Made by a program: the position numbers and the translations under genes | Assembly (NCBI GenBank): GCA_025454635.1 | Contig: JALOOB010000001.1 | Coordinates: forward strand, 1 to 42,835 | Direction of reading: 5' to 3' | Length of the DNA stretch: 42,835 nt | Origin: Anaerolineae bacterium | Lineage (GTDB): Bacteria > Chloroflexota > Anaerolineae > CG2-30-64-16 | Notes under the pieces: generated by a model | The model's database searches: none | Told to the model about the DNA's origin: nothing | Seen by the model: the letters and a program-made list of their open reading frames with translations, nothing else | In this document: piece after piece, positions 19,499 to 24,045 of the stretch | Layout: each line of letters opens with the position of its first letter | Position numbering within the stretch: position 1 is the stretch's first letter

Positions 19499-19861
19499 TC
19501 AACGCGGGGCTGCCGCCGTTGCACCATCCATGATCAGATGGTGCTGCTCCATCATCTGCCCCATCAGTTCGTTCATGAGCTTCAGATGCTCGTCGACCCA
19601 CTCCCGCAGGCGCGCCGGTGACAGGTCGGCGGCAGGCTTCGCGGCCTGCATCTGCTTCATCATGTCGTTCATCATCTGCATGTGTTCACGCATGAGCCGC
19701 TGACGCTCAGTACCTTGCGCCGCGCGTGCGGCGGCGAGCTTGCGCTTGGCTTCGTGCGCCTGAAAGGTCGCCTGACGCTGCGACTCGTCGGGAGCGGCGA
19801 CTAGCGTGGCGGGCGCAGCAGCGACGAGCCCGAACAGCAACATCAGCAAAAAACGCTTCAT
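19499..19861 (-). CDS. Secreted Met/His-rich helical protein
   Basis: An internal ATG at 19861 gives 120 aa. It has the signal peptide MKRFLLMLLFGLVAAAPATLVAA and the Met-rich helices LMREHMQMMNDMMKQMQ and LMNELMGQMMEQHHLIMD. Confidence 0.75.
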   Translation of the reverse strand: MKRFLLMLLFGLVAAAPATLVAAPDESQRQATFQAHEAKRKLAAARAAQGTERQRLMREHMQMMNDMMKQMQAAKPAADLSPARLREWVDEHLKLMNELMGQMMEQHHLIMDGATAAAPR

Positions 19862-20125
19862 TCGATTTCCTTTTGAGGTCGAAGGGGTCGTAAGGCATTG
19901 CAACGCAGGCAAGTCTGCAAGGTTGCACCTACACACAAGTCAAGCCGCCGCACGCACTTTCGACTGACGCACCAAAGAGTTGCATCGTGCGCCATGACGG
20001 GGCGCAGGCACTGCGCGCGTGCCGGAGCGCGTGCACGGAACGGCGTGGTCGGCGTTCGCATCACCCCCGCTGGCCGGGAGGGCTACGCAAACACGCGGCA
20101 AGCCCTTCGAAACGAACCGCGCGCG

Positions 20126-20815
20126 TCAATGGTGCTTGACGAAGCCCGCGCGCTTGATGTCGTTCCAAGCCGTGGTCTGGTGGCATCGATAGCAGGCCTC
20201 GACCGTTGCGCTCGGGTCGCCCGCCATTGGCCGCGACACCATCTCAAAATGCTCCATATAGTGGCTGGGCGGCCCGCGGTGGCACTCCAGGCAGTCCGTG
20301 GAGCGCGACGAGGGATGGCGGAACCCGGCAACCGCCCACGCAGCGGTTCCATGGCACTGGTCGCAACGCGAACCGAAAAATCCCTGATGCCGATCGCGGC
20401 TCGCGTGGCACGCCGAACACTCCAGGACCCGGCCCCCTCGCGCGAGCAGCCCATGCTCCATCACGGAGGGTAGTCTGGCTCCGCCCGCGTGCTCACGGTG
20501 GCAGCCCGTGCAGGTACCGATCCGTGCGTGGAAGGCCGTCGGCTGGCGCCCCAGCAGCTCCGTGTCCCCCGCATGACAGGCTACGCAGGCCTCGCGCCGA
20601 ACTCCGGACAGGGATTCATGGCAGGCATCGCATTGTCCCGCGAGGAAAGCGTGCGACTGCGATAAGGCCCCGGGTGCCACCGCGCGTTGCCAGAGCCCCC
20701 CGACCGCCAGTGACAGCCGCCTCGCCTCCCCGCCCTCGAGCGCGACCCAGCCGAGCGCGACCACTACAGCGCCTATCGCGAGGGCACGACCTCGCAGTCG
20801 TGTCAGTCGAGCCAT
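20126..20815 (-). CDS. Heptahaem c-type cytochrome with an N-terminal membrane anchor or signal peptide
   Basis: 229 aa with seven CxxCH motifs (CDACH, CVACH, CTGCH, CSACH, CDQCH, CLECH, CYRCH) and many extra His for bis-His ligation. The N-terminus is RGRALAIGAVVVALGWVAL. Its start overlaps the upstream gene by 13 nt. Confidence 0.9.
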   Translation of the reverse strand: MARLTRLRGRALAIGAVVVALGWVALEGGEARRLSLAVGGLWQRAVAPGALSQSHAFLAGQCDACHESLSGVRREACVACHAGDTELLGRQPTAFHARIGTCTGCHREHAGGARLPSVMEHGLLARGGRVLECSACHASRDRHQGFFGSRCDQCHGTAAWAVAGFRHPSSRSTDCLECHRGPPSHYMEHFEMVSRPMAGDPSATVEACYRCHQTTAWNDIKRAGFVKHH

Positions 20816-21577: not shown

Positions 21578-23302
21578 TCATGCGTCCACCGCGATGTCGG
21601 AGGACGCGATGGCCTGGCAGGCGAGCACGAGCCCCTGCGCACGGTCCTCGTCGGAGAGCGCATCCTGCACGTTCATGGACACCTCGCCGGTCAGCAGCTT
21701 TACCTTGCATACGCCGCAGACACCGGCTCGGCACGCATAGTCGATGACCACTCCAACCGCCTCTGCTGCTTCGAGCACCGGCAAACTCAGCCGGGCGCTC
21801 TTGCGGGAGCGGACAAACCTGATCGTGGCTACTGAGGAGTCCGTCCTCGCGCCCGTCGGGGGTGGTTTAGGCGGACCTTCACGCCCGATGAACGCCTCGG
21901 TCTCGATCTGGTCCGCAGGCACGTCCAGTGCGAGTAACGCCTCCTTCACCGCCGCCATCATCGCGGGCGGACCACAGAGGTGCACGTGCCGGTTGGCAAT
22001 CTGCGGTATGGCCGCGGCCAGGACGGCCCGGTCCACACGACCCGTGCGATAAGGCCATGCCGCATCCGGGACCTCGACGATCAAGGTGACCTGCAGGTTC
22101 GGATGACGGCGTGAAAGGTACTCGATCTCGTCGCGGAAAAGCGCATCCGCGGCACGCCGGGCGGCGTACAGGAGATAGATGTCTCCGCCCCAGGCGAGGT
22201 CGGTGAGGTACCGGACGACGCACATCAGGGGCGTGACGCCAACGCCGCCGGCAATCAGGACGATGCTGTCCGCCTCCTTCCCGGCGAACGTGAACCGTCC
22301 GGACGGTGCATTCACTTCGAGAAGGCTGCCCTCCCCGACTTCGTCGTGGAGATAGCGCGATACGACGCCCTGTGGGTCGCGGCGTACCGTGATCTCGCAG
22401 TAGTCGCGACGGCTTGGAGGCGACGCGATCGTATAGGAGCGTCTGACCGGACGTCCCGCCACCGTCACGAGCAACGTCATGAATTGCCCGGGAAGATACG
22501 AGAACGGCACGGGACCGCCGCCCGGGTCGACCATCCGGAACGTCTTCACATCGTCAACCTCGGTGAAGATCCGGGCGACTTTCAATGGACCGCGCCAAGC
22601 GTTCGGGGCACTCGGCGCGATCGCACGGTTCAGCGAGGGCAACGGCGGGAGGACTGCCTGGCCCGCGACCAGTTGCGCCGCGAGCGCGGCGGCACGGCGC
22701 ATGCGCAGCACGTGCGCACCGAGCAGAGCGAGCGCGAACGCGGTCAACGTCGTCATCGCGAGATAGTGGAACCAGGTGAGGCCGAACACACCGTGCGGTG
22801 GATCGCGGCCCGGTGCCACCCCCTGGGATCGGTACCAGTCCAGAGCGACCTGCTCGGGCAACGAAGCGCTCGTCGCGCGATGGAGCGCGATGCCGCTTGC
22901 CAGTTGCGCGGAGGCCTGGCGAAGCGTCTGCAATCCCCGTGCCGCCGACTCGTGGTCACCGGATGCGATGGCGCGCTCCAAGATCCCGCTCGCTTCGCGA
23001 AGGAGCGCTTCACCCTCTCCGATGCGATGCGCGCTCCGCTCCGCCAGGTCGAGCCGCTGCGGCGCCGTCCACTCCGGAAGAGTCATCAAGCTCGGGTAGG
23101 CGGGTCCGGCACTCCGGTTTCCCTTTGACGACATGGCCGGCCCGGAGCGGGAGGGCTCGCCAGGCGCATCGCGGTCCGCTGGAGCCGCGGCGCCATGATG
23201 CGCGTCGTGTGCCGGCTCCTCGGAACCAGCCGGACCGATCGCGACGGCGGCGACCCCAGCAGCGATGACGGCGGCCAGGATCGAGCCGCGCGAGGGGCGC
23301 AC
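21578..23302 (-). CDS. Membrane-anchored FNR-type flavoprotein reductase fused to a plant-type 2Fe-2S ferredoxin, with an extra N-terminal extracytoplasmic domain
   Basis: 574 aa with a GTG start. Residues 7-23 form a hydrophobic leader. Residues 24-173 form a helical domain carrying the His tag EEPAHDAHHG. Residues 174-199 form a TM segment (LTWFHYLAMTTLTAFALALLGAHVL). Next come the FAD motif RRSYTIAS, the motif GVVSRYL, the NAD(P) motifs LIAGGVGVTP and HLCGPPAMM, and the C-terminal CRAGVCGVCKVKL...LACQ. Confidence 0.9.
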   Translation of the reverse strand: MRPSRGSILAAVIAAGVAAVAIGPAGSEEPAHDAHHGAAAPADRDAPGEPSRSGPAMSSKGNRSAGPAYPSLMTLPEWTAPQRLDLAERSAHRIGEGEALLREASGILERAIASGDHESAARGLQTLRQASAQLASGIALHRATSASLPEQVALDWYRSQGVAPGRDPPHGVFGLTWFHYLAMTTLTAFALALLGAHVLRMRRAAALAAQLVAGQAVLPPLPSLNRAIAPSAPNAWRGPLKVARIFTEVDDVKTFRMVDPGGGPVPFSYLPGQFMTLLVTVAGRPVRRSYTIASPPSRRDYCEITVRRDPQGVVSRYLHDEVGEGSLLEVNAPSGRFTFAGKEADSIVLIAGGVGVTPLMCVVRYLTDLAWGGDIYLLYAARRAADALFRDEIEYLSRRHPNLQVTLIVEVPDAAWPYRTGRVDRAVLAAAIPQIANRHVHLCGPPAMMAAVKEALLALDVPADQIETEAFIGREGPPKPPPTGARTDSSVATIRFVRSRKSARLSLPVLEAAEAVGVVIDYACRAGVCGVCKVKLLTGEVSMNVQDALSDEDRAQGLVLACQAIASSDIAVDA

Positions 23303-23304
23303 GG

Positions 23305-24045
23305 TTACATCTCCCGCATCGGCTTCATTGGCGCAGGCTTCCTCATACCAGGCGTTCCCGCTGGCGGCCCGCCGGCACCCGCAGGTGGCCGGGTTCCTAG
23401 CAGCCCACCCTGCTGCGCTGGGGTCAATACCTGAGCCGCCTCACCGACCGCCCGGATGTGAAGCAGGCGCTGGTCGCCGCGCAGGCGTTCGATGGATCGC
23501 ACCACGGTTTCGATGCGACTGGCATCCGGCGAATCCGCGCCGGTCAGCGTCCAGAGTTCCTGCTCGGCTTCGTCGATTCGCCGCTGCGCAGTGGCCCGGT
23601 CAAGCGCCGCCTGTTCACGGATCCGGTTCAGCCGCGTTTGCTGGTCGGCAGAAAGCACGAGGTGCTGCGGATGGTCGAGGAAGAATCCCGTCGCGCCGAT
23701 GTGGTACAGATGGCTCGCCCCCGGAAATCCGGGGAGCCGGGACCGGGCTGCGGCGCCTCCGGCGCCCATGGGCATGGGATCGCGGACCGTCCCCATGGTG
23801 TCCGCACCTGGCGTCGGCATCGGGTTACCCAACGAACCCATGCCCATGCCCATTCCGGGATGCCCGCTCTGCACCCCGGACCCGCCTGGGGCGCCCGCGG
23901 CGGACGGTATGGCGGCCTCCGGTGTCGACGTCATTCCTCCACCTGGGGCGGTTTGTCCCATGCCCATCTGATCCATCATCGCGGACGCGGGTGGAACGCA
24001 GGCCAAGGCAACCGAGAACACGGCCCAACCGAGCAATCGAACCAT
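23305..24045 (-). CDS. Secreted Met-rich protein with a Spy/CpxP-like LTXXQ domain
   Basis: 246 aa with the signal peptide MVRLLGWAVFSVALACVPPASA. The N-terminal half is Met/Gly-rich (MMDQMGMG, HPGMGMGMG, DPMPMG). It then has SHLYHIGATGFFLDH and the LSADQ and LTPAQ motifs. The C-terminus is MRKPAPMKPMREM. Confidence 0.8.
   Translation of the reverse strand: MVRLLGWAVFSVALACVPPASAMMDQMGMGQTAPGGGMTSTPEAAIPSAAGAPGGSGVQSGHPGMGMGMGSLGNPMPTPGADTMGTVRDPMPMGAGGAAARSRLPGFPGASHLYHIGATGFFLDHPQHLVLSADQQTRLNRIREQAALDRATAQRRIDEAEQELWTLTGADSPDASRIETVVRSIERLRGDQRLLHIRAVGEAAQVLTPAQQGGLLGTRPPAGAGGPPAGTPGMRKPAPMKPMREM

Follow-up and report, generated by a model that had tools for sequence, protein, structure and literature searches.

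A flavoprotein, membrane protein and cytochrome trio of copper-resistance islands as a candidate NAD(P)H-driven, periplasm-directed copper reductase

Genes at the locus

We analysed a 42,835-nucleotide stretch of contig JALOOB010000001.1 from an Anaerolineae bacterium (Chloroflexota; assembly GCA_025454635.1), hereafter the window, in which a first reading of the DNA (the original prediction) had placed a candidate trans-membrane electron-transfer module inside a metal-resistance island. The module comprises five genes on the reverse strand. Three of them, hereafter the trio, encode a 574-aa flavoprotein (subunit 1, 21578-23302), a 255-aa membrane protein (subunit 2, 20803-21570) and a 229-aa cytochrome c (subunit 3, 20126-20815). 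They are preceded by an accessory gene for a 246-aa LTXXQ/Metal_resist protein (23305-24045) and followed by a gene for a 120-aa Met/His-rich secreted helical protein (19499-19861). Subunits 1 and 3 and the accessory gene were delimited from the list of open reading frames (ORFs) and Pfam; subunit 2 was taken to start at an internal ATG at 21570 (mechanical ORF 20803-21663), and the 120-aa protein likely starts at an internal ATG at 19861 (ORF 19499-19936). The ORF coordinates agree with the tight co-directional packing originally described, with gaps of 2 nt (23303-23304) and 7 nt (21571-21577) and a 13-nt overlap (20803-20815), and the Met/His-rich protein does follow downstream, about 264 nt separating the cytochrome gene from ATG 19861. 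As each of these ORFs has hundreds to thousands of homologues and their order is kept in distant phyla, they are genes and not chance frames; chance ORFs in high-GC DNA were ruled out by this conservation.

Pfam searches confirmed the domains of the flavoprotein, the cytochrome and the LTXXQ/Metal_resist protein and left the membrane protein without a family. None of the five module proteins reached an equivalog cut-off in NCBIfam. The statement that no module gene is a canonical metal-resistance component was likewise borne out, as 0/5 proteins match the CopA-type multicopper oxidase, CopB, CopC, CopD, CusABCF, P1B ATPase or Mer families (Pfam, NCBIfam) and such families occur in the flanks only. 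By Pfam the window is a metal island, in keeping with the efflux genes predicted on both sides of the module. The flanks contain two cation diffusion facilitator genes, a czc-like resistance-nodulation-division (RND) system, a MerR regulator and a histidine kinase with its response regulator, and further a CusCBA-like RND system, an extra outer-membrane efflux protein (OEP) gene, a multicopper oxidase exported by the twin-arginine translocation pathway and a P1B ATPase. The G+C content is 62-72% across the window, and composition shows no break at the module.

Subunit 1, a flavoprotein with a periplasmic head

From its N-terminus onward, subunit 1 (21578-23302, -) has a Sec-type signal peptide, a His cluster and a helical domain in the periplasm, a single transmembrane (TM) helix, a ferredoxin-NADP reductase (FNR)-type module for flavin adenine dinucleotide (FAD) and NAD(P)H, and a C-terminal plant-type 2Fe-2S ferredoxin. 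The domain order of PDR-type reductases (FAD, NAD, 2Fe-2S) is present with every domain above its Pfam gathering score, namely FAD_binding_6 (residues 250-338, 48.3 bits, cut-off 21.1), NAD_binding_1 (residues 349-453, 74.3 bits, cut-off 22) and Fer2 (residues 509-566, 53.2 bits, cut-off 21). Converted from the Pfam coordinates, this catalytic region spans 21605-22555 (-), with FAD_binding_6 at 22289-22555, NAD_binding_1 at 21944-22258 and Fer2 at 21605-21778. The protein carries the cofactor motifs RRSYTIAS, GGVGVTPLM, HLCGPP, CRAGVCGVCK and LACQ, and RxYS (FAD), GGxGxxP with CGP (NAD(P)H) and Cx4Cx2C...C (2Fe-2S) are conserved in 69 subunit 1 orthologues. Residues 239-573 align end to end with GbcB, the Hcr-type NADH oxidoreductase and PaaE (NCBIfam, E 1e-61 to 1e-53), at scores far below the equivalog cut-offs (GbcB 208 bits/500, Hcr-type 205/383, PaaE 182/421).

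Hydropathy revealed two hydrophobic segments, at residues 4-27 and 181-199. The second is the single TM helix (22706-22762, -), which has RMRR on its cytoplasmic side; the family form of this sequence is K/R-M-R-R-A, and R203 is invariant in orthologue alignments. Because the signal peptide and the periplasmic domain come first and a TM helix ending in RMRR follows, the FAD, NAD and 2Fe-2S domains beyond it are predicted to be cytoplasmic, so that the catalytic domains lie on the NAD(P)H side of the membrane as the proposed wire demands. The flavoprotein had been described as membrane-anchored; the anchor stands, and what was missing from that account is a conserved periplasmic head rich in His and Met.

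The head of the window protein opens with the His cluster HDAHH (residues 32-36; 23195-23209, -), just past the predicted signal-peptide cleavage site. The family motif is [ED]HxxHHP, with H..HH in 64/69 distinct orthologues and an HH pair that is invariant in the orthologue alignment. Next come a linker of about 56 aa, with 12.7% Met across the orthologues, and a helical domain that starts with YPxLM. A His cluster with a Met-rich stretch is a typical ligand set for Cu(II) and Cu(I), known from CopB/PcoE-type sequences and from the ectodomain of Ctr1, which the whole His- and Met-rich extracytoplasmic head recalls. At the periplasmic end of the TM helix, FHxxxM (H179/M183; residues 179-184, 22751-22768) is invariant; it may bind Cu(I) or provide two haem ligands where the subunits meet. 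In Verrucomicrobiota and a few other lineages the head and TM helix form their own 247-aa gene, immediately followed by a 366-aa FNR-Fer2 gene, which indicates that the head is an autonomous module. The split heads of two Verrucomicrobiota loci (L089 8001-9860 and L090 8001-9847; head genes of 221-247 aa) amount to a four-subunit version, and loci L009, L023 and L043 look split in the same way. The FNR region of L090 appears broken into small ORFs and may be decaying.

Subunit 2, a four-histidine membrane protein

Subunit 2 (20803-21570, -) has five TM helices and a cytoplasmic helical hairpin of about 90 residues according to hydropathy and an AlphaFold2 (AF2) model. A word-indexed homologue search with this protein gave 8 matches, and an exhaustive profile search was used instead, which returned 2626 representative clusters at E<=0.001, of which 711 reach E<=1e-10. 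Seventy-one diverse full-length members, down to about 20% identity with the window protein, were aligned, and the residues that never vary among them are H85, H99, G123, H228, H242 and W253. The His pairs by which this polytopic protein had been noticed are therefore 100% conserved, while the other His positions vary. The AF2 model built from the 71 sequences reached a pLDDT of 89 and a pTM of 0.79; a model from 8 sequences was mediocre (pLDDT 73), and its Foldseek matches were meaningless helical bundles.

H85 and H99 lie on TM3 and H228 and H242 on TM5, each pair 14 residues apart. Such a spacing is that of bis-His di-haem b proteins, and a stack of two haems b is known from cytochrome b, NOX and MsrQ. 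Lys and Arg residues number 5.4 on average in loop 2, which connects helices 2 and 3, compared with 0.7-0.8 in loops 1 and 3. By the positive-inside rule, the N-terminus, loop 2 and the 90-residue hairpin are thus cytoplasmic and the chain ends in the periplasm, and with this topology H85/H228 would lie in the cytoplasmic and H99/H242 in the periplasmic leaflet. Subunit 2 is hence predicted to be a di-haem cytochrome b that moves electrons across the inner membrane.

Sub-threshold Pfam matches among the 71 members were to DUF4405 (38 members), Ferric_reduct (24, best E = 4e-4) and Ni_hydr_CYTB, the prokaryotic cytochrome b561 family (21); the window protein itself had no match to Ferric_reduct and gave E = 0.21 for DUF4405 and E = 0.52 for Ni_hydr_CYTB, both below the gathering score. 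A profile search against PDB sequences found nothing significant, the NOX5 TM domain (5o0t) appearing at E = 0.41. Membership of the ferric reductase domain proteins was rejected, given the lack of a significant profile or member match and five helices as opposed to a six-TM core; one feature is shared, in that the His pairs sit on TM3 and TM5 with about 13 residues between them and at matching membrane depths. Membership of b561 or DUF4405 was rejected too, on scores below the gathering threshold and a negative hhalign comparison with YodB. As hhalign was negative for both MsrQ and YodB, subunit 2 was left out of the ferric reductase and b561 families. DUF4405 proteins have been shown by experiment to bind haem b and are proposed transmembrane electron carriers (PMC11334425). 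In view of this and of the weak family matches, we call subunit 2 di-haem cytochrome b-like in its working and do not file it in a named family.

Some subunit 2 homologues bear the RefSeq/PGAP label 'iron reductase', for example in Sphingomonas sanxanigenens (NZ_CP011450.1) and Legionella fallonii (NZ_LN614828.1). Two database proteins carry fusions. In P0205, FNR-Fer2 is fused in frame to the N-terminus of subunit 2, an arrangement that is consistent with the proposed contact between Fer2 and subunit 2, both predicted to be cytoplasmic, and that may be a gene-calling artefact. P0137 joins subunit 2 to an unrelated C-terminal domain of about 290 aa and is either a real fusion or a gene-calling artefact.

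Subunit 3, a heptahaem cytochrome c

Subunit 3 (20126-20815, -) contains exactly seven CXXCH motifs in 229 aa, as the designation heptahaem cytochrome had implied, and all seven are kept in 75/77 orthologues. Cytochrom_c3_2 (33.8 bits), Cytochrome_C7 (31.7 bits) and Cytochrom_CIII (29.1 bits) all match above their Pfam cut-offs. An N-terminal TM or signal segment (residues 7-29) predicts a periplasmic, membrane-anchored protein, and the orthologues share conserved distal His residues and a PPSHxMxHFxM motif. A word-indexed search returned 817 homologues, and a profile search against PDB sequences found no relative. Assignment to the NrfH/NapC/NirT quinol dehydrogenases was rejected, with 18.3 bits versus a cut-off of 134.2 (TIGR03153) and seven haems versus four.

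Conservation, distribution and mobility

Relatives of the trio were sought in a scan of one genome per species with subunit 2 as query, which found them in 121 records, from which 80 loci were taken; Verrucomicrobiota loci of the trio were added after the scan. Synteny was counted by tblastn of the window proteins against 85 loci. The expectation that the genes travel together holds for the trio, which is adjacent and co-directional in essentially all 85 loci, at 30-40% identity and in at least six phyla. Subunit 1 lies directly upstream of subunit 2 in 84/85 loci; subunit 3 is immediately downstream in 76/85 and within the locus in 83/85, the exceptions being mostly contig ends. The loci taken belong to Beta- and Gammaproteobacteria, Legionella, Myxococcota/'Deltaproteobacteria', Acidobacteriota, Planctomycetota and Bacteroidota, the last with Dyadobacter, Pedobacter, Spirosoma, Hymenobacter and Chitinophagaceae as carriers. 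One copy, on a Joint Genome Institute metagenome contig (L001), is 79% identical and has the same neighbours as in the window. At 34-47% identity the order flavoprotein, membrane protein of about 250 aa, cytochrome is kept in four genomes, which include Methylotenera mobilis, Variovorax sp. RA8 and Methylocaldum sp. 14B. In each of these four, copper genes stand beside the trio (CopA oxidase, CopB, P1B ATPase, CusF, Csp, DUF411, DUF2231).

Subunit 3 occurs on 54 plasmid records, 27 of them conjugative, the hosts being Sphingobium (17), Alteromonas (7), Legionella (5), Spirosoma, Variovorax, Methylocystis and others; the more divergent subunit 2 recovered 22 plasmid records. These copies were found at the protein level, and megablast of the module DNA against plasmids gave no match. 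On pMSHV of Sphingobium herbicidovorans the gene order is CusBC, a MerR-type regulator, the trio, DUF1622, Csp, aldehyde dehydrogenase (ALDH), alcohol dehydrogenase (ADH), CopA and CopB. On the conjugative Legionella pneumophila plasmid pH3-D-14 (L091, NZ_CP114577.1 23796-44488) an F0F1-ATPase-like operon stands on one side of the trio and a large multicopper oxidase on the other. The former is a complete extra F0F1-type ATPase operon with AtpZ/AtpI, which suggests an N-type ATPase, and the latter a 1028-aa protein with multicopper-oxidase domains; a DUF2231 protein and a Glu/Leu/Phe/Val dehydrogenase also stand beside the trio on this plasmid.

Copper genes and NAD(P)H supply beside the trio

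Copper genes were counted in the 47 loci that have full 10-kb flanks. At least one of CopA-type oxidase (35 loci), P1B ATPase (25), CopB (23), Csp (14) or RND is present in 44 of them, and two of the three exceptions (L001, L005) carry copper genes according to the called-gene tables. As copper oxidase and Cu-ATPase loci number only a few per genome, we estimate, by reasoning, a chance expectation of a few percent at most per 20-kb window. The metal-resistance setting of the original prediction is upheld for the island as such, and its broad link to Cu, Ag and Zn narrows to copper. We hold the association of the trio with copper with high confidence.

All ORFs in the loci were also clustered without bias and the recurrent clusters annotated with Pfam. 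The commonest neighbours of the trio are CopA-type multicopper oxidase, P1B ATPase, CopB, Csp (DUF326), DUF1622, DUF6799, zinc-ADH, ALDH and a PF10091 glycoamylase. This neighbourhood bears on the idea that the trio is a periplasmic ferric reductase (or a general metal reductase, or a quinone-independent respiratory one) that would sit on copper islands for an indirect reason, such as iron availability under copper. The 'iron reductase' label that PGAP gives to some subunit 2 homologues and the weak Ferric_reduct matches of 24/71 members fit such a role, and both Fe(III) and Cu(II) are substrates of the eukaryotic reductases FRE, STEAP and Dcytb (review PMC7558416). However, the label goes back to sub-threshold similarity, the clustering found no iron-uptake genes where copper genes are present in 44/47 full-flank loci, and HxxHHP with the Met-rich head would be a copper-type ligand set. 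We therefore consider a ferric role quite improbable, and a copper substrate is retained as the favoured one.

A second recurrent feature is genes of the type that supplies NAD(P)H. Within 10 kb of the trio, tblastn detected glucose-6-phosphate dehydrogenase (G6PD) in 11 loci (L089, L009, L019, L024, L038, L057, L061, L067, L069, L072, L073), a 6-phosphogluconate dehydrogenase-like protein in 6, transaldolase in 7, PF10091 glycoamylase in 13, GH15 in 3, isoamylase in 3, ADH in 17 and ALDH in 14; at least one of these genes is present in 33/47 full-flank loci. In the Verrucomicrobiota locus L089 the G6PD (11382-13001, +) has an N-terminal YHS copper-binding domain and stands right behind the cytochrome gene, ahead of CopA. 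We read this as copper islands often bringing their own NAD(P)H supply. With such genes in the islands, consumption of NAD(P)H by subunit 1 fits and inward electron flow is disfavoured. Inward flow would mean that the cytochrome oxidises periplasmic Cu(I) without O2 and passes the electrons into the cell, an activity that would complement the O2-dependent multicopper oxidases of the same islands and would detoxify copper, not make it more toxic. Apart from the NADPH-generating genes, which argue for NAD(P)H being spent, the trio has no quinone-binding or energy-coupling subunit, and reduction of NAD(P)+ (about -320 mV) by Cu(I), with its positive potential, is strongly uphill. We regard reverse flow as extremely improbable.

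A proposed electron route to periplasmic copper

The wire that the original prediction had drawn, from NAD(P)H through FAD, 2Fe-2S and haem b to haem c, is supported by domains, invariant His residues, topology and synteny, and we consider this architecture highly probable. We infer that the three subunits associate and that NAD(P)H would reduce the FAD of subunit 1 in the cytoplasm. Electrons would then pass to the C-terminal 2Fe-2S cluster of the same protein, to a haem b of subunit 2 near the cytoplasm (ligands H85/H228), to a second one near the periplasm (ligands H99/H242) and from there to the seven c-haems of the anchored subunit 3. The named FNR-Fer2 relatives (GbcB, Hcr-type reductase, PaaE, MmoC, BenC) pass electrons outward from NAD(P)H, and since all of them work in this way the same direction is assumed for the trio. 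Cu(II) would be the most likely terminal acceptor, caught by subunit 1 with its [ED]HxxHHP cluster and Met-rich stretch; the LTXXQ protein and other partners rich in Met would also capture it. Its reduction would yield Cu(I), the form that is used by CusCBA/CusF-type efflux, Csp storage proteins and Met-rich chaperones. The reading that we favour, and to which we assign about an even chance, is that the trio is a periplasm-directed, NAD(P)H-driven inner-membrane copper reductase of mobile copper-resistance islands.

Reduction may also go further, to Cu(0) or from Ag(I) to Ag(0). Taken as the purpose of the system, this becomes an alternative in which Cu(II)/Cu(I), possibly also Ag(I) or Au(III), would be turned into insoluble metal in the periplasm, by a logic like that of MerA. 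Where metal ions are reduced to particles, the catalyst is usually a multihaem cytochrome, a seven-haem wire can supply several low-potential electrons, and the module sits with Cus/Sil-like systems for Cu(I)/Ag(I). Such mineralisation would moreover avoid the futile cycle raised below, as Cu(0) would be no substrate of CopA. However, components for nucleation or export are not evident, the Csp and Cus proteins found beside the trio handle Cu(I) and not Cu(0), and one- and two-electron chemistry are not distinguishable from the sequences. Mineralisation appears improbable to us.

Several points weigh against a dedicated copper reductase. Its benefit is not obvious, since conversion of Cu(II) to the more toxic Cu(I) beside a Cu(I)-oxidising CopA is an apparent futile cycle. 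In the window, the subunit 1 linker is Met-poor and the His motif reads HDAHHG instead of HxxHHP, none of the NADPH-supply genes is present, no copper-responsive operator or copper box lies upstream of the module, and promoter and terminator scans gave nothing useful. Subunit 2 of the window has no Pfam match above threshold and its family has no Pfam model; hhalign of subunit 2 against E. coli MsrQ and YodB returned 0.2% probability each, and Foldseek of the 71-sequence AF2 model found nothing in the PDB at E<=0.001. Haem b binding, complex formation and a copper phenotype are all predictions from sequence.

Accessory genes, regulation and further genes of the window

The protein of the gene upstream of the trio (23305-24045, -) is secreted and combines a Met-rich N-terminal half with a C-terminal half of the CpxP/Spy/ZraP/CnrX type (Metal_resist/LTXXQ). 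It matches PF13801 Metal_resist at 35.3 bits (cut-off 29.2); LTXXQ PF07813 is matched weakly and below cut-off, and the ZraP and Spy equivalogs lie far below theirs. Homologues were found by tblastn in 30/85 loci, and in the clustering set the gene stands directly upstream of subunit 1 in 10/14 cases. A unit of four genes had been proposed; the three-gene core stands, whereas the LTXXQ gene is not a fixed member, being present in about a third of the loci. The 120-aa Met/His-rich protein (19499-19861, -) has no Pfam or NCBIfam family and is lineage-specific, confined to close relatives (homologues in 2/85 loci by tblastn), with a gene of equal size in the 79%-identical locus L001.

That Met-rich periplasmic proteins flank the module in the window, and that roughly one locus in three has a CpxP/Spy-type chaperone-like gene with the trio, also fits a repair function. 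The same wire would then keep periplasmic targets reduced under copper stress, in the manner of MsrPQ, and the acceptor would not be a metal ion; possible targets are oxidised Met/Cys ligands of copper-trafficking proteins, peroxide or superoxide, and damaged c-type cytochrome assembly. The precedent is MsrPQ, a di-haem b protein with a periplasmic reductase, which is copper-induced through CusSR and keeps the methionines of CusF reduced (PMC9302797). However, the unbiased neighbour clustering found no conserved MsrP-like molybdoenzyme, thioredoxin-fold protein or peroxidase-type partner, and the conserved His cluster and Met-rich head of subunit 1 point to direct metal binding. No reduction of methionine sulfoxide or disulfides is known for a heptahaem cytochrome by itself, which also counts against repair. 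We judge repair unlikely, if not negligibly so, and copper reduction remains the reading on which the rest of this text is based.

Upstream of the module and on the same strand, Pfam identified a response regulator (27240-27914, -) and a histidine kinase (25700-27250, -). A copper-box-like palindrome, ATGACAAGCTTGTAAT (27961-27976), which resembles the CusR/CopR copper boxes, is unique in the window; it lies between the response regulator and a CusC-like gene, where the two-component system and the CusCBA-like operon share a divergent promoter region. A second palindrome, ATTACGACGCTGTAAT (34813-34828), lies just after the CusA-like gene and before the OEP and multicopper-oxidase genes. The CusB-like membrane-fusion protein (29940-31541, +) ends in a CusF domain (residues 454-522) and is a fused chaperone-adaptor.

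Between the module and the histidine kinase are three small ORFs on the forward strand (24352-24732, 24826-25203 and 25321-25560). All three have equal-size counterparts in locus L001 (126, 125 and 79 aa) and no Pfam family; two are secreted and His/Met-rich, one with GHDMNEQN...APGM repeats and one a His-rich protein of 79 aa. The region from the MerR gene to the module (17219-19499) holds only ORFs that resist annotation, e.g. 19001-19366 (-, 121 aa) and 17888-18718 (-). They are probably real genes, as locus L001 has called genes of 127 and 237 aa there.

Comparison with known systems

The trio was not recognised as part of a characterised pathway unrelated to metals. No NCBIfam equivalog applies, the PGAP/RefSeq names are generic ('2Fe-2S iron-sulfur cluster-binding protein', 'hypothetical protein', 'cytochrome c3 family protein'), and no description was found in the open-access full-text literature searched, subscription-only papers being outside its reach; a survey of the copper proteome of Betaproteobacteria does not mention it. 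A 2020 review states that no specific cupric reductase other than CcoG is known in bacteria (PMC7558416). Tentatively, and with somewhat less confidence than disbelief, we propose that the trio could be the first dedicated NAD(P)H-powered, periplasm-facing copper reductase of bacteria. As such it would form a reductive arm of copper (perhaps silver) resistance that complements CopA/CueO and Cus, is built on an unrecognised di-haem b family and is spread across phyla by conjugative plasmids, often with its own NADPH supply. In current models, bacteria defend the periplasm by oxidising copper (CueO/CopA), exporting it (Cus, CopB) or sequestering it (CopC, CusF, Csp), and by repair (MsrPQ, Dsb/Scs). 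If our proposal is true, the trio would add a missing redox step in which NAD(P)H is spent on pushing electrons into the periplasm in copper islands, and it could account for the supply of Cu(I) to periplasmic systems specific for it in oxidising conditions, or for the formation of periplasmic metal particles. The subunit 2 family, with its 2626 representative clusters, offers a clean four-His signature that is open to testing. Conjugative plasmids with the trio occur in Legionella pneumophila, Alteromonas, Sphingobium and Variovorax, which makes the trio relevant to copper/silver disinfection and to the spread of metal resistance.

Among known systems, NOX, FRE and STEAP and the bacterial NOX homologues share the overall plan of cytoplasmic NAD(P)H, flavin, two bis-His haems b (TM3/TM5, about 13 residues between) and an outside acceptor, and FRE, STEAP and Dcytb reduce Cu(II) ahead of uptake (PMC7558416). 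The trio differs in being made of three polypeptides with an extra 2Fe-2S cluster and an extra heptahaem c wire, and in its subunit 2, which has five predicted TM helices and a 90-residue cytoplasmic hairpin and no significant sequence or fold match to the ferric reductase domain; it also stands in resistance islands and not in uptake loci. In E. coli MsrPQ with Fre, electrons likewise go from a cytoplasmic flavin reductase to a di-haem b membrane protein and on to a periplasmic reductase, and MsrPQ is copper-induced and needed for CusF function (PMC9302797). The trio, in contrast, has no MsrP-type molybdoenzyme, its reductase is membrane-tethered and carries 2Fe-2S, and its periplasmic partner is a multihaem cytochrome. 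DUF4405, PepSY-like and FezC cytochromes, which belong to extracytosolic electron transfer, are small bacterial four-His membrane proteins that bind haem b and have been put forward as taking electrons through the cytoplasmic membrane (PMC11334425). With DUF4405 there are six TM helices and ApbE-flavinylated partners, whereas subunit 2 is accompanied by an FNR-Fer2 protein and a cytochrome c; for the DUF4405-type proteins no link to copper is described.

CcoG, an Fe-S protein bound to the membrane, converts Cu(II) to Cu(I) in copper trafficking (PMC7558416), and it differs from the trio by its two 4Fe-4S clusters, the lack of an identified electron donor and its place in the ccoGHIS cluster of cbb3 oxidase assembly. 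A CcoG-type reductase was rejected for the module, as 0/5 proteins have a Fer4-type domain (Pfam), the trio shows no similarity to CcoG and the window contains no cco genes. PDR-type FNR-Fer2 proteins (GbcB, Hcr-type, PaaE) have the same domain order as subunit 1 but are soluble and feed cytoplasmic oxygenases, and none has its 240-residue exported His/Met-rich domain with TM helix. CymA/NapC/NrfH and the Mtr conduits also use an N-anchored periplasmic multihaem cytochrome c to deliver electrons to extracytoplasmic acceptors, including metals; CymA/NapC/NrfH take them from quinol and have four haems, whereas the trio would use an NAD(P)H flavoprotein and a cytochrome b as donor and has seven, and the neighbour clustering found no outer-membrane porin-cytochrome partner conserved with it. 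The components of the trio belong to known cofactor classes and their logic resembles that of NOX/FRE and Fre-MsrQ; the trio is built on a membrane-protein family without a Pfam model and would bring an unexpected reductive element into copper islands.

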